Below the pieces are notes generated by a model. It was given only the letters and a program-made list of their open reading frames with translations. It made no database searches and was not told the DNA's origin. This document shows, piece by piece, positions 16,718 to 39,295 of a stretch of 64,000 nt of DNA. The stretch is from Akkermansia muciniphila (GTDB lineage Bacteria > Verrucomicrobiota > Verrucomicrobiia > Limisphaerales > F1-80-MAGS106): positions 14,650-78,649 of the forward strand of contig CAMBEJ010000004.1 of the NCBI GenBank assembly GCA_945865375.1, given 5' to 3'. The position numbers were made by a program, and so were the translations under genes. How positions within the stretch are numbered: position 1 is the first letter of the stretch; the number at the start of each line of letters is the position of its first letter.

Positions 16718-17497
16718 TCATCCTTCTTCAGTCGCGGAAACAGGATGGACATGGGAAAGCCTCACGGACGGTCCTCCTGGATAGGGATAGTGGTTTCGGT
16801 AAACATTGATCTTCATCCGAATAAGTCCTCGCACATCAGCAACGGCTGTAGAAATGATTCGCACCCGGCTATCCACATCCTCGACCCAAGTTACAGGCAA
16901 GTCGAATATCCGGTATCCCAACTTCTCAGCCAAAACCATCAACTCTGTGTCGAAAAACCATCCGGTGTCTTCGATCCATGGGAGGAGAGCATCGGCGGCG
17001 CGCCGGGTGATGGCTTTGAAACCACATTGAGCATCCGAGAATCTAGTTCGGAAAAACGCGCGAATCAGTATGTTGTAACTGCGGGAAATAATTTGGCGCT
17101 TTAGGCTGCGTGTGGTTTGTGACGCTTTCATTAAGCGCGAACCTGTCCCAAGGTCGGCTTCACCGGAACGAAGAGATTCTATCATCGGAGGGAAAGCAGA
17201 AAGGTCCGTTGAGAGATCGACATCCATGTAGCTGAGGATGTCGGCTTTGCTTTGGGTCCAGACTTGCTTCAGAGCGCGGCCCCTCCCTTTGAGCGGCAAG
17301 TCCACGACCCGAACGGCGTGATCCGTTCTTTCGATTTCGAGCGCAATCGCTAATGTGCGATCGGTCGAAGCGTTATTGGCGATAACACTTTCAAAATCAA
17401 AGCGGCAATGCTCCAGCAGAAACCTCTTCAGGGAGCGCACACTCGAGGCGAGCTGGGCTTCCTCGTTGTAAACCGGGAAGGTGATATTGACCAGCAT
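16718..17497 (-). CDS. GT2 polyprenyl/dolichyl-phosphate glycosyltransferase
   Basis: [47 protein letters not shown]. Confidence 0.92.
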   Translation of the reverse strand: MLVNITFPVYNEEAQLASSVRSLKRFLLEHCRFDFESVIANNASTDRTLAIALEIERTDHAVRVVDLPLKGRGRALKQVWTQSKADILSYMDVDLSTDLSAFPPMIESLRSGEADLGTGSRLMKASQTTRSLKRQIISRSYNILIRAFFRTRFSDAQCGFKAITRRAADALLPWIEDTGWFFDTELMVLAEKLGYRIFDLPVTWVEDVDSRVRIISTAVADVRGLIRMKINVYRNHYPYPGGPSVRLSHVHPVSATEEG

Positions 17498-17526
17498 GCG
17501 ATTCCTGTGTAACAGCGTCTCATCCG

Positions 17527-18315
17527 CTACCACCAGAAGGTAGGTTCCCGCTCGGTTCGCGGAATAGTGTCTAAGAAGCTTTTTCTTGCCGCATGCCCGT
17601 CGGCAAAGAAGGCGTTGCAACGCTCAGGCAGATTTTTGTAAAGATGCGCGGCGCCGTGTTCAACTGTTTTACCATTGATCAAGTAGCCTCCGCCCAATCC
17701 CGAATACTTATTCAAAGCGCGATTATTGGTATTGCTTCCCGCTGAAATAATTGGATCCGCCACTAGCACAGCCACGGTGGGCGCCACCAGGCTCGAGCTG
17801 AGTTCGGGCGCATTTTGAAACTCGTCGCGAATAATCGGCGCCAGAGTTGTGAGGGAATAGAATGTATTGGCTTTTCGCACCCGAGGGGCGCCGCGTGTAG
17901 CAATGCAATACCCGATCACGCGATAATTGGTGCTATAATTCCAAGCTCCATCAGAAAGAAGTTCTCCTCTAGTGGGGCAGCCAAGAATGCGTCGCGTGGC
18001 TCCATAAGATAGAAGTTTCTCGCAAATCTGGACAGGAACGTCCCAAGCTCGGTTGCCCTGGACAAGGTTCGTGTCGTCGCGGAAACTCAATGAAGGAAGC
18101 AACCCGTGGTAGTCATCGGCGTACATGGTCAAAGCCATGCCCACCTGACGAAGGTTGTTTAAACAAGTCACGCCCGCCACTTTTCGTTTGATTGTTCCTA
18201 AGCTACTCACACCTAGCGAGGCAAGACTCGCAATAATAGCGATCGTAACCAGCAACTCCAGCAGGGTGAATGCCCCCCGAGGTCGTCGGCTGCTAGTTCC
18301 TGGAAAAACACGCAT
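17527..18315 (-). CDS. Prepilin-type N-terminal / H-X9-DG (DUF1559-like) protein
   Basis: GAFTLLELLVTIAII, CLNNLRQVG, H...CNAFFADGHA. Confidence 0.9.
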   Translation of the reverse strand: MRVFPGTSSRRPRGAFTLLELLVTIAIIASLASLGVSSLGTIKRKVAGVTCLNNLRQVGMALTMYADDYHGLLPSLSFRDDTNLVQGNRAWDVPVQICEKLLSYGATRRILGCPTRGELLSDGAWNYSTNYRVIGYCIATRGAPRVRKANTFYSLTTLAPIIRDEFQNAPELSSSLVAPTVAVLVADPIISAGSNTNNRALNKYSGLGGGYLINGKTVEHGAAHLYKNLPERCNAFFADGHAARKSFLDTIPRTEREPTFWW

Positions 18316-18321
18316 AATGGC

Positions 18322-19869
18322 CTAAACAGTCATCAACGACGATTTGTCGCACATATTATTTACTTCTTGGGCACAATTGTTGTTGGCGACATCACTGGTT
18401 TGAGTTCGCCAAACCGCCAAAAGATAAAGCCCCGCCGTGAAGGCAAGAAGTAACGAATAATGAACGATAAAACCATCGCCTCGGCTAAGCCCTAGAAGAC
18501 TCCACACTGTAGGCGCCAGTTTGCCATCAAGAAAAGCATTCAACAAGACTTCTCTAAAAGGATCACGCTCGCCATAGGACATCGGATGAGTCAATACGGC
18601 GAAGCCCGCCATCGCTATTCCTAGCGCACCAAGCGCGGCGACCACTTTACCGTGACGACGCGCTGCTTCGGCAACTGCGGGGATGAAGAAACTCAGAATC
18701 GGTGCCAGATAACGTGGACCGAAGGAAACTCCCGCGAGCCATTCGAACTCACGCCCAGACATTACTACCACTTGCACAAGGATACATCCATAACAAAACA
18801 AAGTGAGTTTGGGACGAGCTCTGAACAAGAAACCAAAACCCACCAAAGCCGTCAGCAAAACCGGAGACCAGAAAAAGAGCCCGCGCTCAGGGCTAAAGAG
18901 CAAAATCCAGGCGAGTTTCAAAGAAGGCAATCGAATGCCGTACAAACCTTCCTGCATCCCCGGGAAACTGGCTTGATAACTGTAGGGAAGTTGCAAAGAA
19001 TGTCCTATGGTTTTCCAGCTGTAGAACGCAATCGAGGCAAGCGGCACGGCGGCACCGATCGAGATACATTTAAATGCTTTCAACTTGAGCTTCCAAACGC
19101 CCCAGCAACTTAGAGCCACGACAGTGAGCCCACTCGTGTATTCACTTGCCAGAGCGGTTCCCAGGCAAAAGCCGGCAATCACCAAATCCTTTTTGTCAGG
19201 CCCATCTTCGCCTCCGAAAACTCGAAGGCAACAGGCAGCGACGACCAAGCAGGCAACGACAAGTCCATGGGAAAACAGCACGGTTGAATAGATAAGCGGC
19301 ATGCCTCCAAGGAGAACACTCCCTGTGGTTAACCAAGCAATCGCCTGGCCGTAGATTTTTTCCAGAGTTTTCACGGCAATCCATGTCGCAATGCCGAGGG
19401 ATGGAGCAAGAAGGGTCGCGGCACAAATCCAACTAAGAATGAACCAGGCGTTCTTTGATTCCAAATCGTGACCGAGGGCTTTCAATATCCTCGCTCCACT
19501 CCAATAAAACGGCAGCATTAAAAAGGATACTCCGGGTGCTTTGTCGCTATAGTAGTGGCCATTCGCGAACGCCTTGTCAGGAGTGTTCTCATGATAGTCA
19601 TCAATATGCCACATACTTTTGACCGCAAGCGAATGCAGGAAATTCTGTCGGGAGATCGCCGTAGGCTTTTCGAAGAACGATTGATGAAGGCATGCCGTCC
19701 ATAAGGCGACGCAGATTCCACAAAACGCGGCGAACCTGGAATCTAGAAATGGAATGACTTTGATGATGGAGATGCCTAAGAGTTGCGATATTTTCTCAGG
19801 AAAATACAAAACAAGCTTGCCCCCAATCCCACTCCCCCGACCAAAAGAGGCCAGTAACGAGGAATCCAT
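18322..19869 (-). CDS. Multi-pass membrane GT-C-like glycosyltransferase; start uncertain
   Basis: TPDKAFANGHYYSDKAPG loop, LFSPERGLFFWSP, FGPRYL; many TM segments. Confidence 0.7.
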   Translation of the reverse strand: MDSSLLASFGRGSGIGGKLVLYFPEKISQLLGISIIKVIPFLDSRFAAFCGICVALWTACLHQSFFEKPTAISRQNFLHSLAVKSMWHIDDYHENTPDKAFANGHYYSDKAPGVSFLMLPFYWSGARILKALGHDLESKNAWFILSWICAATLLAPSLGIATWIAVKTLEKIYGQAIAWLTTGSVLLGGMPLIYSTVLFSHGLVVACLVVAACCLRVFGGEDGPDKKDLVIAGFCLGTALASEYTSGLTVVALSCWGVWKLKLKAFKCISIGAAVPLASIAFYSWKTIGHSLQLPYSYQASFPGMQEGLYGIRLPSLKLAWILLFSPERGLFFWSPVLLTALVGFGFLFRARPKLTLFCYGCILVQVVVMSGREFEWLAGVSFGPRYLAPILSFFIPAVAEAARRHGKVVAALGALGIAMAGFAVLTHPMSYGERDPFREVLLNAFLDGKLAPTVWSLLGLSRGDGFIVHYSLLLAFTAGLYLLAVWRTQTSDVANNNCAQEVNNMCDKSSLMTV

Positions 19870-20738
19870 TGGAATTTTCTCCGTAACTCCGCACTGGAAT
19901 AAAGGAGGTTTCCGCTGAGAGTTGCCAATGAGATGGGTTCATGATTGGACTTGGAGCTAATTATTTTTCCAGAAAACAGGTCCAGAACTTTGGCAAATTT
20001 CCATTCTTTAGGTCCAGAGAGGCTTGCGGGAATAAGTCCCTCGCCAAAAATTCTTCGTGAAAGTACGGATGGATGAATCGGGCGGGGATTCGAAATATGC
20101 CAGGTTGCCACTTCTACGAGCTGATTTGGATTCCCCAAAGCGATGTGAAGCGATATATCAGTCGGCACCCGTGCTTGAGCAATCAGAGTCTTAAAGTTCT
20201 TCAAAATCCACACTGCCTTTTCCGGAAACCGCCCAGATTTTAGATGAACTTTTACCTCGTCACCATCAGGCCAGCTGTTCCAAACGCGAATATGTTCCGG
20301 AAGAACGACCCGGTTATCAATCTCGAGAGTTAGTTCTTCGGTATGTCGCATTTGCTGCAGTTGGGCCAAAGCTCCAGGAACAAACAAAGCACAATTGGGA
20401 GCAAGGGGCCAACCGAACTGTGACTCGAACATACCGGGACTCTCCGAGCGTCGGCAGACTGTGAGGAGCTTGTGTTGCCCTCGTCCTTCCATGTCGTGTA
20501 TGGCAAATCCAAATATTCCGTCAGTCGTAAGAAACGCGTAATCTTTCTGACCGACAATAATTGATCCAGCCTTCGCTGCTTCAGTCAGACCGAGGATTGG
20601 GACGGGGTGCTGATGAAAAGCCACCTCAAATTGCAACGCAGTATCATCGGCGGCAACGATCTCCCTCTTCTGTCCGGCGACCGAAGCAGCGACCATCAGA
20701 ACGGTCGAGACCAAAACTCGCGCAAAGATCTTAGCCAT
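19776..20738 (-). CDS. Hypothetical exported protein with C-terminal membrane anchor
   Basis: N-terminal signal-like segment; C-terminal TM followed by RKYRNS. Confidence 0.7.
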   Translation of the reverse strand: MAKIFARVLVSTVLMVAASVAGQKREIVAADDTALQFEVAFHQHPVPILGLTEAAKAGSIIVGQKDYAFLTTDGIFGFAIHDMEGRGQHKLLTVCRRSESPGMFESQFGWPLAPNCALFVPGALAQLQQMRHTEELTLEIDNRVVLPEHIRVWNSWPDGDEVKVHLKSGRFPEKAVWILKNFKTLIAQARVPTDISLHIALGNPNQLVEVATWHISNPRPIHPSVLSRRIFGEGLIPASLSGPKEWKFAKVLDLFSGKIISSKSNHEPISLATLSGNLLYSSAELRRKFQWIPRYWPLLVGGVGLGASLFCIFLRKYRNS

Positions 20739-21732
20739 GCTTCGGCTTCCTCCTCAAAGCCAAAAAAGAGATGACTGGCACAACAACAACCAGCAAAAGC
20801 CCTGCCCATTGGAACCACTTCACGGGCGACGGGGCTTCCCCCGACTGCACTAGGGCTCCTTTCTGCTCCCCCTGAACTTTATGCATTAGGGCCAATTCAT
20901 CATTCGAATACTTCTCTTTATTGGCATAGTACGTCAAAGAAGGCGAAACTCTTTCGTCAGTGATCAAAGCGCCGACCGGGGGATTCAAGTTCAATGAGGC
21001 GGGAAGCAAATCCTTTGCCTGCTCAAATCTAAAGGAATATTGACTCTCCGAGAGAGTTCTTCCGGATCGCCGAACAGTCAAAGTCATCGACTGTGGGAAA
21101 AACCACCCATGAAAATTAGTGATATTGCTGTAGTTGTATGTCGTGTCTCCGCTGTCATCCGAGTAGGTGAAACTTGTGAAGAGGTTTTGGGTTGAAGAAA
21201 ATCTACCGTTGAGACCGATCTTCTTCTTCGGGTCCGAATAGGTGAACTCCCCTTTTTCAGAGAGATCCAATGGGACCCCTTCTACGAACCTAGTAAGATT
21301 CCACTGAAACGCCTCCGCCGCCGGATGATCCCAAGTCCCTCGGCGAAGGTTAACAAAGGCCGTCAAATGCACTTTCCCGGGAATAGCTGGTTCGACGCGG
21401 CCGTTTTTTCCAAGAACCCCAGTCCCGTAGCGCAAAATGCGATTTTCGCCGACAAAATAAAGAGTTTGCTGCTCCGGATGCTGCGCGGAGAAACCCATCG
21501 CCGAGGCAGATTCATCTGGAAAAATGTCCACGGTCATTGTTTCAAAGGAAGCTCGAAGTCCTTGATCAAATTTTCGCTGGATATGAATCCTAGCCGGGGC
21601 GACCACTTTCATTTTCGCGATCATATCTTCCAATACGAGAGGTTCTGTATTCCCAATCTCCGAACTCGCGAACCACAGAACCACCGAAAATGAACCTACA
21701 ATTATTCTAGAATATGGCTGAGGAATGCTCAC
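20731..21732 (-). CDS. Hypothetical exported protein with C-terminal membrane anchor
   Basis: Hydrophobic N-terminus, beta-rich core, C-terminal TM followed by RRKPKHG. Confidence 0.75.
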   Translation of the reverse strand: MSIPQPYSRIIVGSFSVVLWFASSEIGNTEPLVLEDMIAKMKVVAPARIHIQRKFDQGLRASFETMTVDIFPDESASAMGFSAQHPEQQTLYFVGENRILRYGTGVLGKNGRVEPAIPGKVHLTAFVNLRRGTWDHPAAEAFQWNLTRFVEGVPLDLSEKGEFTYSDPKKKIGLNGRFSSTQNLFTSFTYSDDSGDTTYNYSNITNFHGWFFPQSMTLTVRRSGRTLSESQYSFRFEQAKDLLPASLNLNPPVGALITDERVSPSLTYYANKEKYSNDELALMHKVQGEQKGALVQSGEAPSPVKWFQWAGLLLVVVVPVISFLALRRKPKHG

Positions 21733-21784
21733 ATGAACCTTTTAAAAGTGAGTTGGATAAGCCTAATAGTTTTTATTGAACAGA

Positions 21785-21816
21785 GGCGACGCCACTCGCG
21801 AGGCAGTGGCGTCGCC
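21785..21816 (-). terminator. 12-bp perfect GC hairpin after the Cys-rich gene (terminator or mRNA stabiliser)
   Basis: GGCGACGCCACT-8 nt-AGTGGCGTCGCC; no strong U tract. Confidence 0.55.
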
Positions 21817-21829
21817 ATGATAGTCCTGC

Positions 21830-22183
21830 TTAAGGATTGTAGTACGTACAAGAGGTTCCCCGTTGAAACGTAGGCTGGAGGTCAGCATAAAATATGATAG
21901 CTCCCGCAGTCGGACACGGATTGGGATTAACGCCGGCCGGCCCGTCCGTATACTCTTTGTGCCATTCGCTGGCGGAAACAACGCAGTAATAGCCAGCCGT
22001 GCTTCCACCCTCGGTAGCGCAATAATCCAGGCTTCTTGTCCGGGTGCAGTCCCCGCTGAATACACTTCCTGTCTACCCGGACCACGTACCTGGCGTCGGG
22101 TTACCACACGTCGCCGCATTCAGGACTTGAGTTACCATTGCGAGGCCTAACACCGCTGACCACCTGCTCTTTCTTAGTCTCAT
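21830..22183 (-). CDS. Small secreted Cys-rich protein with in-frame TAG at codon 37 (pseudogene, error or read-through)
   Basis: MRLRKSRWSAVLGLAMVTQVLNAATCGNPTPGTWSG*TGSVFSGDCTRTRSLDYCATEGGSTAGYYCVVSASEWHKEYTDGPAGVNPNPCPTAGAIIFYADLQPTFQRGTSCTYYNP; purine-rich RBS GGAAAAGGAAAG upstream. Confidence 0.7.
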
Positions 22184-22202
22184 ATCAACTTTCCTTTTCC
22201 CT

Positions 22203-23236
22203 TTAGTTGTTTTTGGTTTCTCCACAGCAAGATCCTCCTTTCGGGTTTACGCTTGCGAAAACAATTGGCACGCGCCAGCGAGGAAGCTGACGAAAATCTG
22301 TCAGTAGCTCAACAAATGCCGACTCCTTCAACTCCGATGGAGGCGTCGCGACTAATTCCACGGTTAGCCGCCATCTCTTCTCGTCAAGGGTTCGTAGATT
22401 GGCTTTAAACCACGAATGACTTTCTTTCGCCCCAAGAAGTTGAAGCTTTTGCTGAGAGACCCGTTTTAATTCGATGGAAGCAGTCTTCTTATCCCCTCTT
22501 TCAAGGACCCCCAAGTTCAGAAACTCTGGCTTGCTTTCGAAAGGAACTTCCAATTTCAACGTAATCGCGATCATCTCCTTGACTCCGTTACGGCGGTCCG
22601 TGACATGCACCTTCATGTTTGGGAAAAGGTTTTCCACGGCCTGATCGAGGTTAATGGAAAGGCTTATGCTATAGGTGGCGTCGGCTGCTTTGGAGGGCAA
22701 TAGCTCGGCGGTTAAGGCATCCGTACTCGATTGCAGTTTCAGGTCCTCCTTGGACGGAATCGGATATTCCGTGGCAAAACGGAGCAATAAGTTGGTTTTA
22801 TAGGGGGTTCGGTCAGTCAGCGAGAGAGTCACGAATAGACTGTGCGGAAATATTCTAAGGGGCTGGCTCACTCTACCGGTAATCTTAATTTTTTCCGCCC
22901 CACTGTCGGTGAAAATCGATACATAATGCTCCTGGAAACCGCTTTTCCCAGCAGTATCAAAAATAACCTTAAATGTTTGTTCCTGGTTTTCGACTAAAGT
23001 AATCGGCTTCAAATCGGCTACGGTGCAGCCACAATCTGGCGAAATCCCGGTAATGCGCACAGGCGTGCCGGAGTTATTCCTTAATTTAACTTCATTCGTA
23101 ATGAGCTGACCCACGTAAAGGTTTTTTGGCAGGTCAATATCGCGTGGGAAAACCTCGATTTGCGCATGAAGCAAATACCCCGTCCAAAGGGAGACAAAAG
23201 AAACAAAAAAAGGCGGAATATTGATGTCCTAACCAC
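22203..23236 (-). CDS. DUF1573 / Ig-like exported protein; signal peptide frameshifted in a homopolymer
   Basis: PVRITGISPDCGCT motif. Adding one base to the run at 23205-23211 joins the signal VVRTSIFRLFFVSFVSLWTGYLLHA. Confidence 0.8.
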
Positions 23237-23535
23237 TTCAGGTTTCTTTTACCGAAGGGCGATTCCATTTCCCATAGACATCCCCTGTCCCCTGAGATTT
23301 TTAAGATATCTGAGCTCTGTGGCAGAATCTGCGGGTCAAAATGGCGCTTTTCAGCAGCAGTCAGGCGAGCGATCTGTGGCTCGACCGACTTGGTCGCCAA
23401 TCGGCAACTGACTTTCCAGTTTTTGTCCTTTTAACGGTTCTACCGAAATATGTCAACTGGATTTCCAAATCAGCAGCGATTCAATTCTCATTATGGCCAA
23501 ATTCTCACTCTCAGGTTACTTTGCGGTCACACACC

Positions 23536-24367
23536 CATTTTCGTAATCCAGAAACCGCTCAATGGAGCGCGATTCCGTGGGACATCGATCTCACCTGGGG
23601 GGATCACATGTACGGGGGCGGCAACGAACCGTTCCAGTCCCCGGTCCTTTCGCGGCCAGCGTTCAGGTGGGATTATCACCCTATTATGATTTCCCGGCAC
23701 GTGATGCTTGAGAAAGCGGGCCAAGGACTTTTCTACCAGGGCACCCGATCCGGAGACTTCAACCTAAAAAGAGCAGTTGAGGGTCTCGAATTCTCGCAAC
23801 TCATTCCATTTGCAATTTGTTGTACAAATCCATGTTGCAACCAAGAAGGTGAACCACGGAGCAGTTGGATTCCATATCAGTTCAGGCACTTACAAAAAGG
23901 AATGACTCTCAACTGCTTTTTTTAGGTTCAACGGTATGGTTCGCCAGAACGATTATGTCAAACGCCGCGCCTCGTTTATCGACAGCTCTCTTCTATCCGA
24001 TACGTTGATCCCGGCAACGCCATCGATAACCTACACTGGAGGCCAAGGGTATCCCGCCAACGCCCTTTCTTTTTCGTCCTCCGCGTTCTCAGGGGCCGGC
24101 AGGTTCGCCGCCGTGAAATGGCGGTTGGGCGAAATCGATCCGCCTCGGGGTTTGCAGGCCAAAGCCGCAGGGCCAGGGCACTATGAGATCAAGGCATTGT
24201 GGGAAACAGGGGAATTGTCCGAGTTCAAAGAATCCGTCGTTGTCCCGGCGGAATCCGTGAAGCCCGGGCACCTTTATCGAGTGCGGGTGAGCCTGAAGGA
24301 TGATTCAGGAAAATGGAGCCATTGGTCGCCGCCGGTCCAGTTCATTGCCGCCCCGGCGAACAATTAG
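23536..24367 (+). pseudogene. C-terminal fragments of the CotH-family gene, interrupted by a MITE
   Basis: HFRNPETAQWSAIPWDIDLTWG...KAGQGLFYQ...GDFN[MITE]GMVRQ...GKWSHWSPPVQF. Confidence 0.7.
23763..23926. mobile_element. 164-bp MITE (family B), copy 1
   Basis: TIRs CCTAAAAAGAGCAGTTGAG / CTCAACTGCTTTTTTTAGG; TTCAA duplicated on both sides; near-identical to 42036-42199. Confidence 0.92.
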
Positions 24368-25653: not shown

Positions 25654-25657
25654 AAAA

Positions 25658-27406: not shown

Positions 27407-27430
27407 AACGGAGAACAATTCGTAGGAGGA

Positions 27431-29734: not shown

Positions 29735-29776
29735 TAGAGCCTGTCCCAAAAAACCCTGAATTTGGGACAGGCTCTA
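29735..29776. repeat. Perfect 16-bp inverted repeat, possibly abutted IS ends
   Basis: TAGAGCCTGTCCCAAA-10 nt-TTTGGGACAGGCTCTA. Confidence 0.7.
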
Positions 29777-31001: not shown

Positions 31002-31057
31002 AACCGAATAATCGTCAGATAGAGCCTGTCGCAGGATTGGTTTGCCAAACTTCAAGG

Positions 31058-32119
31058 TCAAGGATCATTACGCACGGAAGTTGCTCGACTCTCTGAAACG
31101 CATGCCGTCATATTGACGTTGCTTGCCGGCGCCTGAAGCACCCGTGCTTTGAGCAGCAGCAACGGTGCTAAAAACAACATCCAGAAGTTGGACACTGCGC
31201 CATAAAGAAAAGTCTTTAAGAACTGGAGAGTTTCCGTGTGCATCGACGGTAGCACATTCGTAAGATCCCGGATCAACCAAGCACCGCCGAGGGCGTATCC
31301 GAAAGCAAAGCCGCGCCTCCAAACTTCTCCACGCACTTCAAAGGAAGCCCAATGTCCTGCCAAGAGGATCCCACACGCAGTGCCGAAAAGCTCGCCGACG
31401 GATTGGATCAATCCGCTCAGACTTCGAGCTCCTACAGAATACGTTGACCAATTAAAAGAATCCACAACGTTCCTTGTTGCCCCTTGCACCCCAAATCCGA
31501 CAAACAGCAAGGCGACCGTCGCCCACATAACGATAAGCATTCGGTGCCAGAAGCTCAGTGACCTGAGCCACGAGCACAGCGTTTGCTCCGTCCATTCAAA
31601 GCACCAGATCAGTCCTGTCCCAATAATCCACGCTGCTACGACATCGCTAATAAAATGAACTCCGAGATACACGCGAGAAATCGACACCAGCAGGACAATG
31701 ATGATCGCAACCATTAGGATCGAATACTTGCCGACTGTTCTGGCCACATACGGCCACACAACTACGGCCCACAGAACATGTCCTGAAGGCATACCGTATC
31801 CCCCGGAATCTGAGAGTGCCTTGACGCGGTCATCCATCCAAAATGGACGAGGCATGTGGCATGCCAGCTTCAAGATGTGCAGCAACCAGCCGGTCAATGA
31901 GAAGAGCAGGAAGAGACGTTGCCCTGCCGTCCTAGAGAGGCAAAAGTAAACGAACGGCAGAACGTAAGGAAATACTTCGAAACCCAAATAGCTGACCATG
32001 ATCATCAAGTCCCGGATCGTGCCGTCTCCTTGAATGGCTACAATCCAGCTCAACTCCACTCTATGAATAGAAGACATAGACTGTCGGTTGCTAGGAATGT
32101 GTGCGTTTGGAATCCACAA
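31058..32119 (-). CDS. PAP2-family membrane phosphatase; start uncertain
   Basis: K...PRP, MPSGH, SRVYLGVHFISDV. Confidence 0.9.
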   Translation of the reverse strand: MWIPNAHIPSNRQSMSSIHRVELSWIVAIQGDGTIRDLMIMVSYLGFEVFPYVLPFVYFCLSRTAGQRLFLLFSLTGWLLHILKLACHMPRPFWMDDRVKALSDSGGYGMPSGHVLWAVVVWPYVARTVGKYSILMVAIIIVLLVSISRVYLGVHFISDVVAAWIIGTGLIWCFEWTEQTLCSWLRSLSFWHRMLIVMWATVALLFVGFGVQGATRNVVDSFNWSTYSVGARSLSGLIQSVGELFGTACGILLAGHWASFEVRGEVWRRGFAFGYALGGAWLIRDLTNVLPSMHTETLQFLKTFLYGAVSNFWMLFLAPLLLLKARVLQAPASNVNMTACVSESRATSVRNDP

Positions 32120-32377
32120 AGACGCTTTCCAAGGATCTTTTCATCACGCTCCACTTCCAAATCTTTCGAACTGCTTTGCTCTCACCTCCCAAAATCATTC
32201 TCAAGTCGGATCCCCTCTAAAACAGGTCAATGTATAATGTCGCGGCGTAATGCAAGCACTTTCTCTGTGAACCGTTGCCATCTTGCTCGCACGGTCCTCG
32301 GGAACGTCGACGAATCTGCATTCAAGGTTTTCCGATTCTCACTTTTGATGGCTGCCGTCAGATGTCTTAAACAACAT

Positions 32378-33244
32378 TTACTTCTGTGGCACCCACTCCG
32401 GAGGCGGAGCAGGAATGGCTTTTTGCAAACGCCGCAAATCCGCCAGGTCTGCCTGATTTTGCGCGCGCTTCCAGTAGCTTTGCTTCTGCTTGAAACTCTT
32501 ACCCCAACGCCATCGCCAAAGTTCCGTATGGCCATCCGCAAAGGAGAATGTTCCCGCTTTGCCGTGCCGGTCCGTCGGCATGTTTACCCAGCGATCGTCC
32601 GGGTCCGGCCATGTCAAAAAATGCGCGTCGTCAATGCTGTCTTCATCCTCGTCCACAAACACAAAGAGTTGCGACGGATTCTCCGTCTGCGAGAAGCGTT
32701 GAAACACCGTTTGAGCTTCATTGGTCCGCCCCCCCCAAGTCCCACTCATAGAGTAGCTGCGGGTGCGCAATCGTGACAACCACTGGCCGTTCAATAAATG
32801 CACCTTGGATCTATCCGCTGGACAGTGGTAAGTGTTTAGTGAGCGGTTGTAGTCGTACTTGAACAAGAGTCCCTGTTCAATGCCCGTCGTCTCCGGATCA
32901 TGCGGAGCGCTGCTCCAGCCAATCCAGGAATCAGGCGTGCTTCTCCAGGCACCGGCCCCGTTGGTGGCTAGATTTGGAGGCACGCAATCATTGTTGTCGT
33001 TCACATACATCATCCAGCACGCTTGCAATTGTTTGAGATTATTCAGGCACACGGAGGAGACGACTTTTCTCTTGGCGCTGAACAAGGCCGGAAGAAGCAG
33101 TGAAGCCAGAATAGCGATAATCGAGATCACGACTAACAATTCGATCAAGGTAAAGCCCATTCTCGGATGCGCGTCATCCAAAATCATTCTCGCGTCCCGC
33201 GTTCGCGCGAAGCGGGGTGCCTCAAGTCGAGTTGCACTGTTCAT
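32378..33244 (-). CDS. Prepilin-type N-terminal / H-X9-DG (DUF1559-like) protein
   Basis: [51 protein letters not shown]. Confidence 0.92.
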
Positions 33245-34010
33245 TGGAATTACCTGTTGGCAATTGTTTAGCTGCTTTTTGAGCAGACGTCGCTCGACCA
33301 TACCGTCCCCCAACACAATTCTTGCGCATCCGAATCAGTCCTTTGATGTCGTCCCAAGCCGTGCGAATGATCCTCACTCGGCTGTCCGAATCATCCACCC
33401 AACGGACGGGCAGATCGAAAATGCGATAGCCCAATTTCTCTGCCAACACTAATAGTTCTGTGTCAAAGAACCAACCATTGTCTTCGACCAACGGCAACAA
33501 CGCTTGCGCGGCTGGACGCGTGATCGCCTTAAATCCGCATTGTGCATCGGAAAAGCGGGTGTGGAACATTACCTTGACAAGCACATTGTAACAACGGGAA
33601 ATAAACTCCCTTTTCCATCCGCGTTTGATCAATTCCGGCTTGAGCAATCTCGAACCGGTCGCTAAATCAAACCCGCCACTCATCAGCCCTTCGATCAAAG
33701 GCGGAAAGGCGGAGAGATCTGTTGAAAGATCGACATCCATGTAGCTCAATAGGTCCGCCCTGCTCGCCAGCCACGCCGATTTCAAGGCTCGTCCGCGACC
33801 TTTCTCGTTTAGGTGGACCACACGGATTGTTCTCCGTTCGTACCCTAATTGTCTCGCAAACTCCAAAGTGCGATCGGTCGAACCATTATCAGCAATCACG
33901 ATTTCGTAATCGATTCGGAAGTGGCGCGAAAGAAACTCGTCCAATATCTTCACACTGGCCCCAAGCTGAGCTTCTTCATTGAACGCCGGGATGACGACAG
34001 CAAGTTTCAT
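33222..34010 (-). CDS. GT2 polyprenyl/dolichyl-phosphate glycosyltransferase (paralog of 16718-17497)
   Basis: [39 protein letters not shown]. Confidence 0.93.
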
Positions 34011-34016
34011 GCGCTA

Positions 34017-34421
34017 TCACAAGGTCATCATTCGCGAGCCGATACGTCTCGGAAAGGATAGCGAGGCAGACCGTGGCTTAAAGCAATTCAGTCCCAAATG
34101 AAATACGCCGCGCTCCCATGATGTGGGCAGCAAGGCCGCAGACGCGGCGAGCGTGAAACAAGCCTGAACTGGCGTCAAGACTTCGAATCCACAGTCACCG
34201 ATTGCGGGCAAGCGAGTTTGGGGCGCAAGTCGCGCAGCCTCCCAGACCAGGACTGTTGTCGTGCTTCCCTGCCAAACTCGATAGCGCACTAAAGGTTCAA
34301 GCAAATTCCGCTGTTCCCAATCGGAGAAAGTCTGGCCCGCGACACTCTTGATCACTTGGTCCATGAAACGCTTCCAGTTCCAGTTCGCCAGCACGAGGCA
34401 GACTCGCGACTTAGTCTTCAT
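34017..34421 (-). pseudogene. Internally deleted GT2 remnant
   Basis: N-terminus KRFMDQVIKSVAGQTFSDWE fused directly to late motif NLLEPLVRYRV. Confidence 0.55.
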
Positions 34422-35708
34422 GCTCTTTTCTCCTGCTTACCGTCTGTCTTCGAGCCTTGGACCAGATCACGCACCACCAAAACCAGCGCAACCACGATGG
34501 CCAGTGGCAGCAGTGTCCTTGGAATTACCTCTTTGCTGAACAAATACGGTAAATACGTGAACGCAGAAGCAGTCTGAACCAGAGCTGTCACACGCCAGCC
34601 TCCCGCAACGTAGAACGCATAGATCACCGACAGAACATCTGCCGCAAAGAAATAGCGTTCGTGCATGCCGGGCAGGAGAAACGGCGGAAATAAAACCGAC
34701 AATAATGCCAGCGACACGAGCCAGCGGTTCTGATCGGATTGTTTGGCACGATTCTCGTTCATCCACAGAACGAAAACCGCAGTGGCTCCGAGCGTGAGCA
34801 CGACACCGGGCCACCAGAATATCTCCGGATACTGTTCAAAGACCCATTGATACCAGTTCGTCGCACCAAGAGTCAGTCCGGGAGTATTCTCTACTCGACC
34901 CCAGTAAGCCAACACGTCCAGCACGGGCCGCCCAGCCAGCATGGCTGGTATTCCACATGCCGCATACACCGCTCCTGGAATCCAAATCCATTTCCAAGGC
35001 AGCCGTCCGCTCACGAATAGTCCCGCGAGCAACGGGCACCAGAAGATGGCCTGAGGTTTCAGTGAACAGGAAAGGCCAAAAGCGATCAATGCCGCCCTCG
35101 GCCTGTTCTCCAGTAGGTAAGACAAAGACGCGACAAAACCACCAACGTAAATGACGTCACACTGGGCCCAAAGGGCGCCATTCATGACCACTGTGGGAAG
35201 GAACAGGAATATCGTAATTGCGACCCACGCTCTTTGGTTCTTGGGGAATTCTCGCTGTAACAAACGCCAAACATACGCCGCCACGACATAGTCGGACCCG
35301 ATGGAAATCAATTTAATCGCGTACAGTTTCGGCAACGGCAGCAATGTGCTAAGGGACACAAAATACATGTAAAGCGGTGGGTAATTGGCGAATTGTTCGG
35401 TCAATTTGCCAAGCCCGCGCCATCGCCCATGCTCGATAAACCAATCATACCAGTGGCTCAGGTAAAGTCGAAAATCTCCGCTTTCGAAGTTAAAAATTGA
35501 AATTCGCAGCAAAAGGGAGACGGCGACGGTGACATAGAGCCACAGGAACAGAGGCTCCCGCCACGGTTGTCGTGGTGTCACTTGTAAACCGGGATGATCA
35601 TTTTGTCCGGTGCTGCCTCGAGTTACCAGCGCCGTGCTTTGCGCGATCCAGATGTCTGGCTCTGAAAGGACCGGCCCCGGTATTCGTTTCCTGCTTTGAG
35701 ATGGCATG
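34418..35708 (-). CDS. GT-C (GT87/mannosyltransferase-like) membrane protein; start uncertain
   Basis: ANYPPLYMY, WAQCDVIY, LKPQAIF, LPGMHERYFF. Confidence 0.82.
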
Positions 35709-35795
35709 TCCACGACAAATGCATCCCTACTCACCAAGTCGAAGAACAGGTCCAGTCTTTCATTCACTTTCAGTGCAGTGTTTACTTTGCCTTCC

Positions 35796-37196
35796 TCAAG
35801 GCAGGCGCCGCCACAGCCACCACATGCCGCTGACCACAATTGCATAATAGAGCGCCACTGAGGCATAAGGCGGAAGCCCGAGAATCATCCCCACATTCGG
35901 CGAAAGCTCACCGTGTAAGAACAGCGGCAAATGTAGCTGGAGCAGTGGATTGTAAAGGTATCCACCTGGACAAGCGTCCGTGAGAGTAGCAAAAGTAACG
36001 ATACCAATTGAATACATCCCCAAAACGAGTCCAAGTCTCGGCCATCGTTCGACACCCAATGCACAGAGTATCGCTAAAAGAGGTAAAATTGGCGCGAAGT
36101 AACGGGCACTGAGAGTAGGACCAGCTTCCCAATCCCACACTCTTCCCGAAATTACAAGACAATGTAATAAAGGTATGTAGTAGAATAACCATTGCGATCC
36201 TGGGCACGTGCTGGGAAGTCGAAGCATGCCGGGGATGGCCAACAGCAAGAACGGCGTCCAAAACACTAGCCCGCGAGTCGGACTGAATAGCAGTCGCCAG
36301 AGATTCTCGAAATCCGGCATTTTGATGGCGTACAGACCCTCATTCATCGCAAGAAAAGTGGCTTGATAGCTATAAGGAATAGCAAAAGGAGTTCTGATTG
36401 TTAACCAACTGTAAATTGGAATTAGTAAAAGTGGTGGCAACATACCCATGACAAATGGTTGCACTCCCCCCTGTCGACGCACACAAACATAGCCAACAAA
36501 TCCCATTACCACCAGTCCACTGCTGAATTCGCTTGCGAGCGCCAATCCTGCACAAACTCCCGCCAACACCATGCGCTTTGAATTCCCAGTCCGCGTATTG
36601 GAACGCTGCAGGCCGAACAAGTTCATCGCCCACATAGCGATTGATAACAACCCTATGACCCCGGCATGACTAAACAAGGATGTTGAGTAAGGGAGAGGCA
36701 ATGATCCTAGAAACAGTGCGAGCACTGTTGCAAGTGCCGCTCGACGCGCCACAAACTGCGAAAGCCAACTGAACAACAAAGCTCCTCCGACGGCCGCCGG
36801 CAAGGCTTGAGAGAACACACAAGCCATCCAACTCGTTGCAAGCCACGAAGCCTGTGAGTTCGCCTCCACCCCAATCGCCCTTAATACAATCGAAGTGGCT
36901 GCAAAAGCCGGCAACGCCAATGCGACCGCACCCGGTGCCTTATCACTGTAATAATGTCCCCCTGAGACCGCTTTATCAGTGGTATTCGTGTGGTACGAAT
37001 CTATACTCCACGAATGTTTATCCACTAACGCGTGAAGTAAATCAAGACGCGACACGGGCGTAGCTGCGTCAAATCGCTTCTGATGAATCGTGCTAAAAGA
37101 AAACAATAACAACAGTGCTAGAATGGCGCATGGGCACAACTCGCGAGACCTAACGCCCTGTGAATCAGTTCCATCACTCACGAAGTTTACGTTCAA
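35796..37196 (-). CDS. Multi-pass membrane GT-C-like glycosyltransferase (paralog of 18322-19869)
   Basis: TTDKAVSGGHYYSDKAPG, PYSYQATF, LFSPTRGLVFWTP. Confidence 0.75.
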   Translation of the reverse strand: MNVNFVSDGTDSQGVRSRELCPCAILALLLLFSFSTIHQKRFDAATPVSRLDLLHALVDKHSWSIDSYHTNTTDKAVSGGHYYSDKAPGAVALALPAFAATSIVLRAIGVEANSQASWLATSWMACVFSQALPAAVGGALLFSWLSQFVARRAALATVLALFLGSLPLPYSTSLFSHAGVIGLLSIAMWAMNLFGLQRSNTRTGNSKRMVLAGVCAGLALASEFSSGLVVMGFVGYVCVRRQGGVQPFVMGMLPPLLLIPIYSWLTIRTPFAIPYSYQATFLAMNEGLYAIKMPDFENLWRLLFSPTRGLVFWTPFLLLAIPGMLRLPSTCPGSQWLFYYIPLLHCLVISGRVWDWEAGPTLSARYFAPILPLLAILCALGVERWPRLGLVLGMYSIGIVTFATLTDACPGGYLYNPLLQLHLPLFLHGELSPNVGMILGLPPYASVALYYAIVVSGMWWLWRRLP

Positions 37197-37225
37197 GCGA
37201 CAAACTCAACTCGATTGTTTTACCA

Positions 37226-37600
37226 TCAGCAGTTACACGGTTTCGCGGATGCAATTGGATCACCGCACGGTGTCGTACATGTGCACGTGCCCGTTGGAGA
37301 GCCATGAGTCTCATCATTAATGCAGTTACACTTCTTATAGGAAGCTGAGACTGTTGTTTGCGATCCAATGGTACACGTAGAGGGCGGAACGTTTATGAAC
37401 TGGACGCAACTATTGCATGAGCCACTGTATGTCCATATAATGCAGGCCGGCTGGCCGGAATTGTTACAATATACGTCACAATCACCAGAATCGATGGGCC
37501 CAACGCACCCCCAAAACACGGCACTAACGTCCTCCGTTAGCATGAATGCTAACAACGTGCAGACAGTTGCATATCGGAGTCGCACCGATATAAATTTCAT
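37226..37600 (-). CDS. Small secreted Cys-rich protein (14 Cys in the predicted mature part)
   Basis: Signal MKFISVRLRYATVCTLLAFMLTEDVSA, then a Cys/Thr/Ser/Gly-rich domain ending KPCNC. Confidence 0.75.
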   Translation of the reverse strand: MKFISVRLRYATVCTLLAFMLTEDVSAVFWGCVGPIDSGDCDVYCNNSGQPACIIWTYSGSCNSCVQFINVPPSTCTIGSQTTVSASYKKCNCINDETHGSPTGTCTCTTPCGDPIASAKPCNC

Positions 37601-37720
37601 TAGTCTTTCAGTTACTTTGTGTGTTTGCATACCGTTCCTATTGTTTTGGTTGTTTACGACATTGAGCCGACAAATCAATTTCCTAGCTGACTCTTGGCTC
37701 AATTGTCGCACAGCCCAAGG

Positions 37721-39295
37721 TTATTTTGATATGTTGCTCCGTTGAGATGTTTTCCACATTATTAATGGCCCTGCTATCACAACAAACACCATGATCCAAC
37801 CGAGCATACTGCTGATTCTGGTTCTGAATCGTCGTTTTGCCATCAACTCGACTTGGTGGGAGAATTCTAGCCGAGCTAATGGGGATATACTCAGCGAGGT
37901 GAGGGCATTAGTGGTGTATCTGACACCAGAAATCTGAAGTGCTTGATCGAATAGTCTCTCCTCGGTAATGGTCACTTGGTTAGGCAAATCCAACTGCGGA
38001 AAAGTCACTGAGCCCTCGGCGTAATTTATAACCCGCAGATCGAGTCTCGCATTTCCGTACGGAATTTCGCGCACCGATTTGCCCGTTGTGTTGGTTCGCG
38101 GCGGCGCAAATTTGGAGAACTCAGCAAGAGTCGGAATGCGCATTCCAGCAACATTTATAAAATGTGACAATTGGATTTTCTCTAGGAGAAAGCCCTCATG
38201 GTAGCGTGCAACAAGCGCTTGCGCCTCTCTATAGTTCGTATTTTCACCGTTGCTCCATTCAGGACCTAAAAACGCGCTGGAACGCCACTTCTTCCGCAAA
38301 ACATCCGAAACTCGTATATCACAACTCAATGTCTGCTCACTACCGGTTCCAGCATATGTATAATGTGCCTCGCTGATAACACTCAGCGGTTCGCCAGCTA
38401 CTGTAGATGCGACGGAAAACGCTCGCACCTTGGAAGCAGATTCTGACGGAAACAACGCTAAACAACGAACCATCGTGAACACCCGACTTGCCAATCCATC
38501 TCCGCAGTTTCCCAACTGCCATGCAATATCTTCTCTGCGAAAGCTAGCAACCGCCAAATTCTCTTGCATATTGAATGTAACAACGGCATTCGTTCCTTTA
38601 TTTACAAAGAAGATGTTGGAAGCAGTACCACTATTGTATCTACTTGGAAGAGCGGGCGGCAAATAGGAAATCAGTAGCGTGTCATCGTCGAAGCGTGCCT
38701 GAAAAGCCTTCGTATCCTCCGAGGTCTTCCCGTTATAATCATAAGTTGAACGAAGTTCCCCAGAAATCAAAACTTGGTCGGCGGTGGCCCTAATTGGACT
38801 TGTGCTAATCCACGCGATAATCAGTAAACACGCCATCACTTGTGGAGAATGTTGGTCGCGCTGTCGCAGGCGCACTTCTTTTCTTTCTTCGTTAAATATG
38901 AATATTCCGGCGACCCACAGAAACGAAAGCATCAATCGAATTAACCAAGTTGATGCCCTGGCACCCAACAAGTCTGTCGCGACTCCAAGGCATGAGCAAT
39001 GCTGTTGATCAGACTGCGTGAACAAACTAAGATGATAAAGCGAAGCACAAGTGCAGAAATAAAGAATGATCTGTCCAGACCCGCCTGATTGTATCGACTT
39101 TATTAATGACAAAGCAACTAGGATCTCCATTACAGCACCAAGAATGAGCGCCTCACGATTAGTCAACAGAGTAATTCCAGGATCAGTTATTATCGCCGAC
39201 AGTGGCACCCGAACAAACTGCACTACTTTCAGAACAGCGGTAACAAATAACATCAACGCAATGGCCCACAGCACTTTTTCACGTAATCTGTTCAT
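37721..39295 (-). CDS. MauE/DoxX-like membrane domain fused to a periplasmic domain with C-terminal TM
   Basis: TAVLKV...EILVAL...HCSCLG (CxC in a TM loop); long soluble region; terminal TM. Confidence 0.7.
   Translation of the reverse strand: MNRLREKVLWAIALMLFVTAVLKVVQFVRVPLSAIITDPGITLLTNREALILGAVMEILVALSLIKSIQSGGSGQIILYFCTCASLYHLSLFTQSDQQHCSCLGVATDLLGARASTWLIRLMLSFLWVAGIFIFNEERKEVRLRQRDQHSPQVMACLLIIAWISTSPIRATADQVLISGELRSTYDYNGKTSEDTKAFQARFDDDTLLISYLPPALPSRYNSGTASNIFFVNKGTNAVVTFNMQENLAVASFRREDIAWQLGNCGDGLASRVFTMVRCLALFPSESASKVRAFSVASTVAGEPLSVISEAHYTYAGTGSEQTLSCDIRVSDVLRKKWRSSAFLGPEWSNGENTNYREAQALVARYHEGFLLEKIQLSHFINVAGMRIPTLAEFSKFAPPRTNTTGKSVREIPYGNARLDLRVINYAEGSVTFPQLDLPNQVTITEERLFDQALQISGVRYTTNALTSLSISPLARLEFSHQVELMAKRRFRTRISSMLGWIMVFVVIAGPLIMWKTSQRSNISK

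Follow-up and report, generated by a model that had tools for sequence, protein, structure and literature searches.

Two paralogous Verrucomicrobial gene cassettes suggest a periplasmic system for folding and glycosylation of variable cysteine-rich proteins

The sequence analysed here, hereafter the window, is a 64,000 nucleotide (nt) stretch of a genome deposited as Akkermansia muciniphila (GenBank assembly GCA_945865375.1, contig CAMBEJ010000004.1, positions 14,650–78,649). It contains two co-directional gene runs, cassette 1 (positions 23236 to 16718) and cassette 2 (positions 39304 to 30489), which encode small secreted proteins, membrane-anchored proteins, glycosyltransferases and prepilin-like proteins. 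Every open reading frame (ORF) of the two runs is on the minus strand. The G+C content of the runs is 0.50, compared with 0.56 in the remaining window.

Cassette 2 begins with a gene (positions 37721–39304) that encodes a MauE-like four-helix domain with the motif HCSCLG, fused to a LolA-like periplasmic domain and a C-terminal membrane anchor, as read from profiles, an AlphaFold2 (AF2) model and fold matches. It is followed by a Cys-rich secreted protein (37226–37711, with a likely start ATG at 37600), a GT-C glycosyltransferase of an unnamed family that carries the motif HYYSDKAPG (35796–37196, assigned by AF2 model and Foldseek) and a second GT-C, which is GT87-like according to PF09594 matches of its orthologs (34418–35866). 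Next are the truncated remnant of a second GT2 type (34017–34421) and a short GT2 of the polyprenyl-phosphate sugar synthase type (33222–34010). The run ends with a prepilin-like protein that has the N_methyl motif and H-X9-DG and is of a conserved, cassette-specific type (32378–33316), a PAP2 phosphatase (31058–32119, PF01569 at 64.2 bits) and an S-adenosylmethionine (SAM) dependent methyltransferase with a Pfam match (30489–31061). The last two are local accessories.

Cassette 1 starts with a DUF1573 ORF (22203–23174) and, in another frame, a signal-peptide-like ORF (23081–23236), which together span 22203–23236. Downstream there is a small secreted ORF with six cysteines and an internal TAG (21830–22183), and then two proteins with a signal peptide and a C-terminal anchor. 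The first is a periplasmic protein of the LolA-like anchor family (20731–21732) and the second is without detectable relatives (19776–20738). The last three genes encode a GT-C with the HYYSDKAPG motif that represents a divergent subtype (18322–19869), a prepilin-like protein with the N_methyl motif only 6 nt downstream of it (17527–18315) and a short GT2 (16718–17497).

A comparison of the cassettes shows 36% identity over 423 amino acids (aa) between the GT-C proteins (E = 2e-76) and 63% identity over 237 aa between the short GT2 proteins. The two pilin-like proteins have only their N-terminal 63 aa in common. An earlier first-pass annotation, made from the letters of the window, had listed the ORFs of both runs and called the runs paralogous. 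The ORFs are present on the minus strand at or near the coordinates listed there, and the identities of the GT-C and GT2 pairs bear out the paralogy. A tblastn search of the genome reveals only these two GT-C copies, a third GT2 paralog and about 90 prepilin-like matches. The third GT2 paralog is on a short contig (G000 contig C147:2548–3285) and is 55–64% identical to the cassette GT2s. The prepilin-like matches, which are of the DUF1559 type, are spread over many contigs of the genome.

The motif HYYSDKAPG is at residues 105 and 81 of the two GT-C proteins, and SDKAPG is invariant in 22 aligned homologs. Neither Pfam, NCBIfam nor the PDB sequences gave a match to the HYYSDKAPG GT-C, and a search of the PDB with a GT-C profile was also empty. 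Its 298 homologs carry no functional names, and the source of one of them gives Fontisphaera persica as the organism. The AF2 model of the cassette 2 protein has a predicted local distance difference test score (pLDDT) of 86.4 and a predicted template modelling (TM) score of 0.90. When it was compared with known structures by Foldseek, matches 1–37 were all GT-C enzymes. The best is ArnT (5f15, E = 2.2e-5, TM score 0.48), followed by Emb, ALG9, Pmt4, ALG12, STT3/AglB/PglB, DPY19 and AftB. Structural neighbours in the Atlas have TM scores of 0.76–0.91, and some of their clusters are named RgtA/B/C/D-like. The HYYSDKAPG proteins, of which the cassette 2 protein was modelled, are thus predicted to belong to the GT-C fold. 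Residue D85, inside SDKAPG, follows helix 1 in the model and precedes the long helix after it. It is a candidate for the conserved acidic residue of the first extracytoplasmic loop and may have a catalytic role. The closest relatives of the cassette 1 GT-C are 47% identical, and among them is a protein cluster (P0295) in which the enzyme is fused to a pilin-like domain.

The second GT-C of cassette 2 has no Pfam match at E ≤ 0.01, and a PDB search gave one chance match (E = 0.88). Its assignment comes from orthologs at other loci, one of which scores 30.3 bits against PF09594 (L026; cut-off 25), with two others below the cut-off (L023, 23.5 bits; L036, 23.0 bits). The GT2 remnant next to it, which had been noted in the first-pass annotation, is 134 aa in length. 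Only its first ~36 residues match the second GT2 type, which is 302–328 aa at full length in loci L023 and L051. The short GT2 proteins match PF00535 with 70 and 76 bits (76 in cassette 2). Their nearest relatives in the PDB are the dolichol-phosphate-mannose synthase of P. furiosus (5mlz, E = 7.8e-13), then GtrB and ArnC. In NCBIfam the best resemblances are to PgfS, AglJ and ArnC, with no equivalog cut-off reached. By these relationships the short GT2s are assigned as putative polyprenyl-phosphate sugar synthases of the DPM1/GtrB/ArnC type. A polyprenyl-phosphate sugar would be a candidate donor for the GT-C, read only indirectly from a DPM1/GtrB-like GT2 within 7 kb in 18 of the 24 loci with enough flanking sequence.

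The fusion protein at the start of cassette 2 is 527 aa in length, and its AF2 model has a mean pLDDT of 69, with about 90 in the MauE part and about 60 in the LolA-like domain. The MauE-like part forms a four-helix bundle, in which, by alignment and model, helices 3 and 4 flank a conserved CxC[LM]G. A MauE profile made from other loci matches the window fusion at E = 2.8e-21, and one of five orthologs is above the cut-off of PF07291 (L039, 28.3 bits). An extra hydrophobic segment after the fourth helix is read from the sequence of the fusion. Together with the positive-inside rule, this segment would place the LolA-like domain in the periplasm.

At its C-terminus the fusion has the domain of a family of anchored proteins, which display a signal peptide or signal anchor, a domain of ~330 aa and a final helix in which a proline is conserved and after which basic residues follow. 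A profile derived exclusively from 12 other loci matches this domain of the fusion at E = 9.6e-11 and the cassette 1 ORF at 20731–21732 at E = 8e-5, which improves to 2.5e-40 after one iteration. The ORF at 19776–20738 is different: its hhalign probability against the anchor family is 0.04, and it has no Pfam match and no tblastn match. The anchored proteins of the window had been described as without obvious mutual similarity. This holds for 19776–20738, but the C-terminus of the MauE fusion and 20731–21732 represent one family. No Pfam or NCBIfam model matches the anchor family, and a search of PDB sequences with the MauE/anchor profile was empty. Foldseek places structures of the LolA superfamily on top, with 3buu first (E = 7.2e-5, probability 1.0) and then LolB, LolA, DUF1329 and 3bk5; the top entries 3buu, 9tpm, 8t5j, 4z48 and 3bk5 have E values from 7e-5 to 3e-3 and probabilities of 0.96–1.0. 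The VIA aligner finds more than 20 LolA, LolB, RseB and DUF1329 entries over residues 174–450 (Z 5.7–7.8), and a language-model search gives the LolA superfamily with a lead-level score of 0.78. The fold of the anchor domain is probably LolA-like.

The Cys-rich protein of cassette 2 has a predicted mature part of 97 aa with 14 cysteines. Its scaffold, C-x3-C...C-x2-C...C-x-C...C, is common to proteins of at least seven other loci, with sequence identities of 17–31%. The conserved columns among the Cys-rich proteins are almost exclusively cysteines, and several scaffolds exist. The protein has no Pfam or NCBIfam match, and a jackhmmer search of 4,922 ORFs retrieved only the protein itself, so that the kinship of the Cys-rich proteins is read from the cysteine scaffold only. 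The genome encodes a VKOR homolog and a prepilin peptidase; no DsbB was found in it at 94% completeness.

Both pilin-like proteins have the N-terminal motif of PF07963 and TIGR02532. The first-pass annotation assigned H-X9-DG to both. It is present at residue 251 of the cassette 2 protein, which has no PF07596 match, and is absent from the cassette 1 protein, which has only ...DGH and scores 20.3 bits against PF07596 (cut-off 23.3). The cassette 2 type has orthologs in 13 other loci with 44–67% identity and many invariant D, E, H and W residues, and is the best-conserved component of the cassette. In three protein clusters (P0033, P0068 and P0295, with 65 member sequences) an N-terminal GT-C is fused to a C-terminal pilin-like domain, and these clusters derive from two GT-C subtypes. 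Both halves of P0295 correspond to the types found in cassette 1, with 45% identity in the GT-C part and 33% identity over all 262 aa in the pilin part (E = 6e-46). A further ORF of 453 aa in locus L073 (11236–12597, plus strand) matches both the MauE-like and the pilin-like profiles and has the N-methyl motif at residues 225–248. As there are some 90 pilin-like paralogs in the genome, a mere pilin-like neighbour means little without the evidence of orthology and fusion. The strong conservation and the fusion to GT-C make a role as partner or acceptor of the GT-C more plausible than the pilus-like structure that had been suggested for these genes.

A scan of one genome per species gave 39 GT-C loci, from which one (L027) was dropped as it has no ORF that matches the GT-C profile. 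By their titles, nearly all the loci are from metagenome-assembled genomes of Verrucomicrobiota, with one from Omnitrophota and one from Chloroflexia. Neighbouring genes were counted on the same strand and within 7 kb, in the 30 loci with at least 3 kb of upstream sequence and the 24 with at least 3 kb downstream. Upstream of the GT-C homolog there is a MauE-like gene in 24 of 30 loci, a signal-peptide Cys-rich ORF in 21 (and on the opposite strand in one), a C-anchored protein of the ~400 aa family in 18 and a pilin-like gene of the cassette type in 18. Downstream, 18 of the 24 loci have a short GT2 and nine have a GT87-like second GT-C. Counted as single ORFs within 6 kb upstream, 25 Cys-rich signal ORFs are on the strand of the GT-C and one is on the opposite strand. 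The usual order is pilin-like, anchor, Cys-rich, MauE-like, GT-C, then sometimes the GT87-like protein and the second GT2 type, and the short GT2. A recurrent association of the GT-C family with MauE-like and Cys-rich genes, which the first-pass annotation had predicted, is thus found. In five loci (L022, L034, L036, L038 and L051) a response-regulator-like gene is just upstream of the cassette.

The distribution of the GT-C family is patchy. It is present in 21 of 301 genomes of the order and in 18 of 143 genera, and close homologs are present in 7 of 61 relatives. It was not found in two genomes of the same genus (62% and 82% complete), and 251 genomes evenly chosen from the phylum gave distant matches only, the best of them beyond the genome itself at E = 2.6e-32. 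The anchor family is spread about four to five times as widely, in 96 of the 301 genomes and often in several copies. It is found in 14 of the 21 genomes with GT-C compared with 82 of the 280 without, where related genomes are not independent. A large library contains 3,863 clusters of this family at 50% identity, 681 of them at E ≤ 1e-30. The names on ten sampled clusters were either absent or 'hypothetical protein'.

A Cys-rich ORF is located directly downstream of the anchor gene and on the same strand for 33 of 55 anchor ORFs in two sets of loci (15/24 and 18/31). The opposite-strand flanks of the same 55 ORFs contain no Cys-rich signal ORF. In 14 regions around anchor genes that have no GT-C, the MauE-like, anchor and Cys-rich genes are again together. 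As read from these neighbourhoods, the recurrent core is a triad of MauE-like protein, LolA-like anchor and Cys-rich protein. Fusions of the MauE-like protein with the anchor are present in the window and in loci L040, L052, L065 and L075. An ORF in L065 or L066 (10944–12557, genome G400) seems to be a fusion of a GtrA-like part with one of the anchor family.

The triad also occurs in tandem arrays. Locus L061 (G350:C10:6000–25999) has four MauE-like/anchor/Cys-rich units in 20 kb, without the GT-C family of the window. The MauE-like proteins of these units are 73–93% identical, the anchors 30–76%, and the Cys-rich proteins 33–57% or unalignable. The pairwise identities of anchor and Cys-rich protein rank in the same order. 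Genome G400 has five units that represent old lineages, as their MauE-like proteins are 26–34% identical, with one closer pair (MauE-like 64%, anchor 47%, Cys-rich 50%). By these comparisons the anchor and the Cys-rich protein appear as a fast-changing pair and the MauE-like protein as the slower, generic part, although parallel divergence of duplicated units is no proof of co-evolution. The description of conserved machinery around a variable Cys-rich protein, given earlier for the window together with a MauE-like factor and lipid-linked glycosylation, holds both there and across genomes.

Of the 14 triad regions without the window GT-C, ten have other glycosylation genes. These are of several kinds: Wzy_C, GtrA-like, a long GT2 and a recurrent polytopic membrane family. 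A gene of the Wzy_C family adjoins the pilin-like gene with a 4 nt overlap in L072 and a larger overlap in L064, and a homolog is present in L063. Together with the 6 nt spacing in cassette 1 and the GT-C::pilin fusions, this represents repeated adjacency of a glycosyltransferase gene to a pilin gene, and adjacency only. GtrA-like genes (PF04138) are located directly after the GT-C in L024, L025 and L030. The polytopic membrane family has no database match, including an empty search of PDB sequences, and is also present in three GT-C loci (L023, L039 and L041). From a motif, it may possibly be a glycosyltransferase. In the repeat of genome G400 (L065/L066, G400:C1:2270000–2298000) the units consist of GtrA-like, MauE-like, anchor, Cys-rich and polytopic membrane genes, and the polytopic membrane protein is 85–90% identical between units. 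In L069 a protein of 1009 aa (3188–6217, minus strand), with an N-terminal GT2 domain and a long remainder, is beside a MauE::anchor fusion and a Cys-rich ORF. Comparison by hhalign detected no relation between the GT-C and this GT2-fusion protein, or among the three membrane families. The occurrence of different glycosylation gene sets at the same place argues that extracytoplasmic glycosylation belongs to the system.

Several components of the window cassettes are damaged or local. The small ORF of cassette 1 has an in-frame TAG at 22073–22075 and only six cysteines. A reading of this stop as selenocysteine was rejected, as the codon is TAG and not TGA. The 51 aa signal-peptide-like ORF that starts at 23236 does not share the frame of the DUF1573 ORF, which matches PF07610 with 49.6 bits (cut-off 26.1) and has no in-frame start carrying a signal peptide. 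A contig from another lake-water sample (run X4) spans 20847–23462 with eight substitutions, none of them at the TAG, and no insertion or deletion. The lesions are therefore not errors private to the assembly. With the TAG in the small ORF and the frame break at DUF1573, cassette 1 looks partly decayed, and cassette 2 looks intact apart from the GT2 remnant. The small secreted ORF and the DUF1573 domain of the first-pass description of cassette 1 are retained, the former with its internal stop and the latter in a frame that does not start at 23236. Neither the 39 GT-C loci nor 22 further loci were found to contain DUF1573, PAP2, the methyltransferase or the second anchored ORF of cassette 1. 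DUF1573, PAP2 and the methyltransferase are accordingly classed, by gene content, as local extras and not as recurrent parts, and the place in the system that DUF1573 and PAP2 had been given is withdrawn. The DUF1573 domain has a CGC motif and a weak likeness to the NCBIfam OS_HP2 (seleno)protein family (27.3 bits, cut-off 100), which hints at a redox role for the motif. PAP2 resembles SepP, PgpB and LpxE, all below the NCBIfam cut-offs. A PADLOC search gave no match for 12 of 13 cassette proteins. The remaining one, the methyltransferase (30489–31061), matched generic methylase models only, among them mad2 (E = 2.5e-12), which is probably generic similarity.

Both cassettes look horizontally acquired, on the basis of their low G+C, the insertion of cassette 1 into a gene, a resolvase-like neighbour and the patchy GT-C distribution. 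The flanks of cassette 1 are collinear with one large gene, for which a 1399 aa paralog is present on contig C7. On the left, positions 15900–16800 correspond to residues 482–597 of the paralog (remnant at 16066–16668, plus strand). On the right, positions 23200–24450 correspond to residues 878–1008 and 1007–1147 in two frames (remnants at 23341–24367, plus strand). Some 280 residues of the interrupted gene are missing and there is a frameshift in its right part. Homologs of the left flank in relatives are in frames of 1000–2300 aa. A similarly large protein of 1707 aa, with lamin-tail, Fn3-associated and CotH kinase domains, is encoded at 43298–48418 (minus strand). The ORF adjoining cassette 2 (40376–41134, minus strand) is resolvase-like, matching PF00239 with 31 bits (cut-off 23.3), and lies in a stretch of higher G+C (0.60). 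Two tandem 18 nt copies, 94% identical, are at 39627–39662, about 320 nt upstream of the start of the MauE fusion. There is no tRNA within the window, and no convincing terminal repeats were found at the cassette boundaries.

RNA-library contigs from two metatranscriptome runs match mainly housekeeping genes between the cassettes, and such contigs cannot show level or absence. From the cassettes there are short pieces only, inside or at a cassette edge (23169–23410, 33341–33559 and 39245–39399). Elsewhere in the window, positions 6506–8669 (plus strand) encode an ArsR-type regulator, an ArsC-like low-molecular-weight phosphatase and an SBF/Acr3-like transporter, which looks like an arsenic resistance operon. 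Near the start of the window there are a DUF4007 protein (3022–4203, minus strand, 219 bits) and a PIN-domain protein (4576–5073, plus strand).

The reading that we favour, with moderate confidence, is a system that folds and glycosylates hypervariable disulfide-rich proteins in the periplasm, of which the window has two acquired modular copies. One module would be built around a small protein exported by Sec, in which the cysteine scaffold is conserved and the loops are hypervariable. The MauE-like four-helix protein, with its CxC facing the periplasm, would form or reshuffle the disulfides of this protein. The LolA-fold protein, held at the inner membrane by its C-terminal helix and diversifying alongside the Cys-rich protein, may be its cognate binder, i.e., a holder, a chaperone or an immunity-like partner. 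In the second module the DPM1-like GT2 would load a sugar onto polyprenyl phosphate at the cytoplasmic face. The sugar-lipid would then be flipped, and the novel ArnT/PMT-like GT-C would transfer the sugar in the periplasm, with the GT87-like GT-C, where present, extending it. The first GT-C may work with the conserved pilin-like protein, to which it is fused in some relatives. The acceptor would most likely be a protein of the cassette, with the Cys-rich cargo favoured and the pilin-like protein second. In the simplest assembly the MauE-like, anchor, pilin-like and GT-C proteins would all be in the inner membrane, facing the periplasm, and the sole free soluble product would be the Cys-rich protein. 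Gene families, predicted folds, recurrence, order, fusions and diversification are the observed basis of this reading, from which disulfide chemistry, binding, sugar, acceptor and role are inferred.

Several results weigh against the proposed folding and glycosylation system. The MauE domain of the window scores only 16.6 bits against PF07291 (cut-off 27). The first-pass annotation had called this domain MauE-like, and the four helices and CxC[LM]G are present in it. The resemblance of the MauE-like part to VKOR (Z 8.0–8.4) is within the chance range for helical bundles. The LolA-like domain is modelled at a pLDDT of about 60, and its Z scores are middling, where values below 8 can reflect a common arrangement. 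Seven of the 21 GT-C genomes have no anchor-family match, and cassette 1 has no MauE and a broken cargo ORF. The Ser+Thr content of the Cys-rich proteins has a median of 0.184 where they are linked to GT-C (n = 25) compared with 0.145 elsewhere (n = 18), with p = 0.063. With ArnT, which modifies lipid A, as the best structural match, a lipid or glycan acceptor is possible. A pilin-like acceptor would account at least equally well for the GT-C::pilin fusions and for the Wzy_C genes beside pilin-like genes.

The last point is the basis of the alternative that survives best, which we regard as possible but on balance unlikely: the GT-C, or elsewhere Wzy_C, glycosylates the adjacent prepilin-like protein, with the triad as an independent neighbour or as cargo of the pseudopilus. 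The fusions in three clusters and two GT-C subtypes, the 6 nt spacing in cassette 1, the overlapping Wzy_C and pilin-like genes in L072 and L064 and the prepilin peptidase of the genome are all consistent with it. So is tfpW, a GT-C gene beside pilA that is reported to be required for pilin glycosylation (bioRxiv 10.1101/2020.04.19.049825). However, each unit of the G400 repeat has its own GtrA-like and polytopic membrane gene and no pilin-like gene, an arrangement that fits a triad protein as acceptor. The pilin-like protein is also the most conserved component (44–67% identity), with many invariant acidic and aromatic residues, a pattern closer to that of a working subunit than to that of a surface fibre carrying decoration. 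A permanent fusion of the enzyme to its acceptor would be unusual, and some 90 DUF1559-like genes in the genome are not expected of a classical major pilin.

Less probable, and in our view unlikely, is an explanation in which the Cys-rich protein serves antagonism, as a bacteriocin-like or other secreted (glyco)protein, the LolA-like anchor is its specific immunity or neutralising partner, and the MauE-like and glycosylation genes serve its maturation. Tandem diversified units, four in L061 and five in G400, would fit such a system, as would the rapid, parallel divergence of anchor and Cys-rich protein against conserved MauE, GtrA and polytopic proteins. The size and diversity of the anchor family (3,863 clusters), the patchy GT-C distribution (7/61 relatives, 21/301 genomes) and the marks of acquisition, i.e., the low G+C, the position of cassette 1 inside a gene and the resolvase-like ORF at cassette 2, are consistent with it as well. 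But searches of Pfam, NCBIfam and PADLOC gave no toxin, immunity or defence family for any component. The putative immunity protein would be about four times larger than its effector, the cassette has no dedicated exporter, and shared ancestry of the duplicates alone gives correlated divergence.

It is more doubtful still that GT2, GT-C and PAP2 modify lipopolysaccharide, lipid A or an envelope glycolipid, with the LolA-like protein handling lipid and the Cys-rich ORFs as bystanders or regulators. ArnT and the RgtA/B/C/D-like Atlas neighbours of the GT-C, the acyl chains that proteins of the LolA superfamily are established to bind and the sub-threshold likeness of PAP2 to SepP, PgpB and LpxE would be explained in this way. 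The strand-specific adjacency of Cys-rich and anchor genes (33/55 compared with none) and their parallel divergence would not be expected, PAP2 is not recurrent, and the GT-C is fused to a protein domain. A chance neighbourhood of unrelated genes with spurious Cys-rich frames is most improbable: high G+C does yield spurious ORFs, and L023 8910–9200 and W2 7187–7534 are plainly alternative frames, but the strand bias (25 to 1 for ORFs, 21 to 1 for loci), the fixed position of the Cys-rich ORFs after the anchor, their signal peptides and common cysteine scaffold, and the fusions that connect the components all speak against it.

A bolder reading, which we offer tentatively, is that the triad represents an unrecognised and very large polymorphic class of secreted proteins in Verrucomicrobiota, hypervariable, disulfide-rich and often glycosylated, each with a cognate anchored binder, under conflict-type selection and with a pilin-like docking subunit for the glycosyltransferase. 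The conflict might be inter-bacterial antagonism, or evasion of phage or predators, with the pairs diversifying in tandem arrays. This too is a speculative suggestion.

A search of full-text literature, supplementary files aside, gave no published description of the cassette. The window is best described as having two copies of a widespread cassette that lacks annotation, a triad joined by glycosylation genes, for which the fold assignments are new. If the favoured reading is correct, the significance would be threefold: a new GT-C family marked by an invariant SDKAPG in a loop, a new and very large LolA-fold family, and a recurring unit in which disulfide folding, a cognate binder and lipid-linked glycosylation are combined around a secreted protein that is hypervariable. 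Three glycosylation gene sets (GT-C; Wzy_C; GtrA with the polytopic protein) are at the equivalent place in different loci, which opens protein glycosylation to direct tests in free-living Verrucomicrobiota of freshwater and soil. To our knowledge, the role of the DUF1559/H-X9-DG pilin-like proteins, which are expanded in bacteria of the Planctomycetes-Verrucomicrobia-Chlamydiae (PVC) group, is a long-standing blank, and the association described here would provide a first functional handle on one subgroup of them.

Comparison with known systems reveals partial likenesses. MauE, together with MauD, is needed to mature the disulfide-rich MauA, the small subunit of methylamine dehydrogenase. The cassette resembles this arrangement in having a MauE-family membrane protein beside a secreted protein of ~100 aa with many cysteines. 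It differs in that the MauE match is weak, there is no MauD, MauB or other mau gene, and no MauA model matches. The predicted open beta-barrel of the anchored periplasmic domain is like that of LolA, LolB, RseB and DUF1329. Unlike these, the anchor has ~330 aa with insertions and a C-terminal transmembrane helix with a conserved proline, and is encoded next to a Cys-rich gene. In the three-component Gtr scheme a flippase (GtrA), a GT2 (GtrB) and a GtrC-type GT-C act together, and actinobacterial O-mannosylation employs Ppm1, Pmt and GT87. The short DPM1/GtrB-like GT2, the GtrA-like genes of related loci, the first GT-C and the GT87-like second GT-C are reminiscent of both schemes. However, the window cassettes have no GtrA gene, and the first GT-C matches neither PMT nor GtrC by sequence.

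Enzymes of the Wzy_C family (TfpO/PilO/PglL) glycosylate type IV pilins. TfpW is a GT-C encoded immediately next to pilA and is reported to be needed for pilin glycosylation (bioRxiv 10.1101/2020.04.19.049825). Here also a GT-C is beside a prepilin-type gene, and Wzy_C takes that place in sister loci. The pilin-like proteins of the cassettes, however, are DUF1559/H-X9-DG paralogs (~90 per genome) and not major type IV pilins, and some relatives have the enzyme joined to the pilin-like protein in one chain.

The streptococcal Pgf and GtrB/PgtC2 systems are also similar in composition. In these systems, a GT-A enzyme makes undecaprenyl-phosphate-sugar, and GT-C enzymes modify extracytoplasmic Ser/Thr-rich regions. 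The pgf cluster also encodes adhesin substrates, and a catalytic acidic motif is in an extracytoplasmic loop (bioRxiv 10.1101/2024.05.05.592596; PMC5856776). The cassette likewise has a GT2/GT-A polyprenyl-phosphate sugar synthase and two GT-Cs clustered with secreted or anchored proteins, and the NCBIfam model most like the cassette 2 GT2 is PgfS (57.9 bits, far below the equivalog cut-off of 500 bits). There are also differences. The GT-C here is not YfhO-like, and its fold is nearest to ArnT, Emb, ALG9 and Pmt4. The candidate substrates are compact Cys-rich proteins and not long, disordered Ser/Thr-rich tails. The MauE-like, LolA-like and pilin-like components have no Pgf counterpart, and the host is a Gram-negative Verrucomicrobial bacterium. 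Pgf and GtrB/PgtC2 represent the closest known logic, with one GT-A, GT-Cs and their substrates in one cluster.

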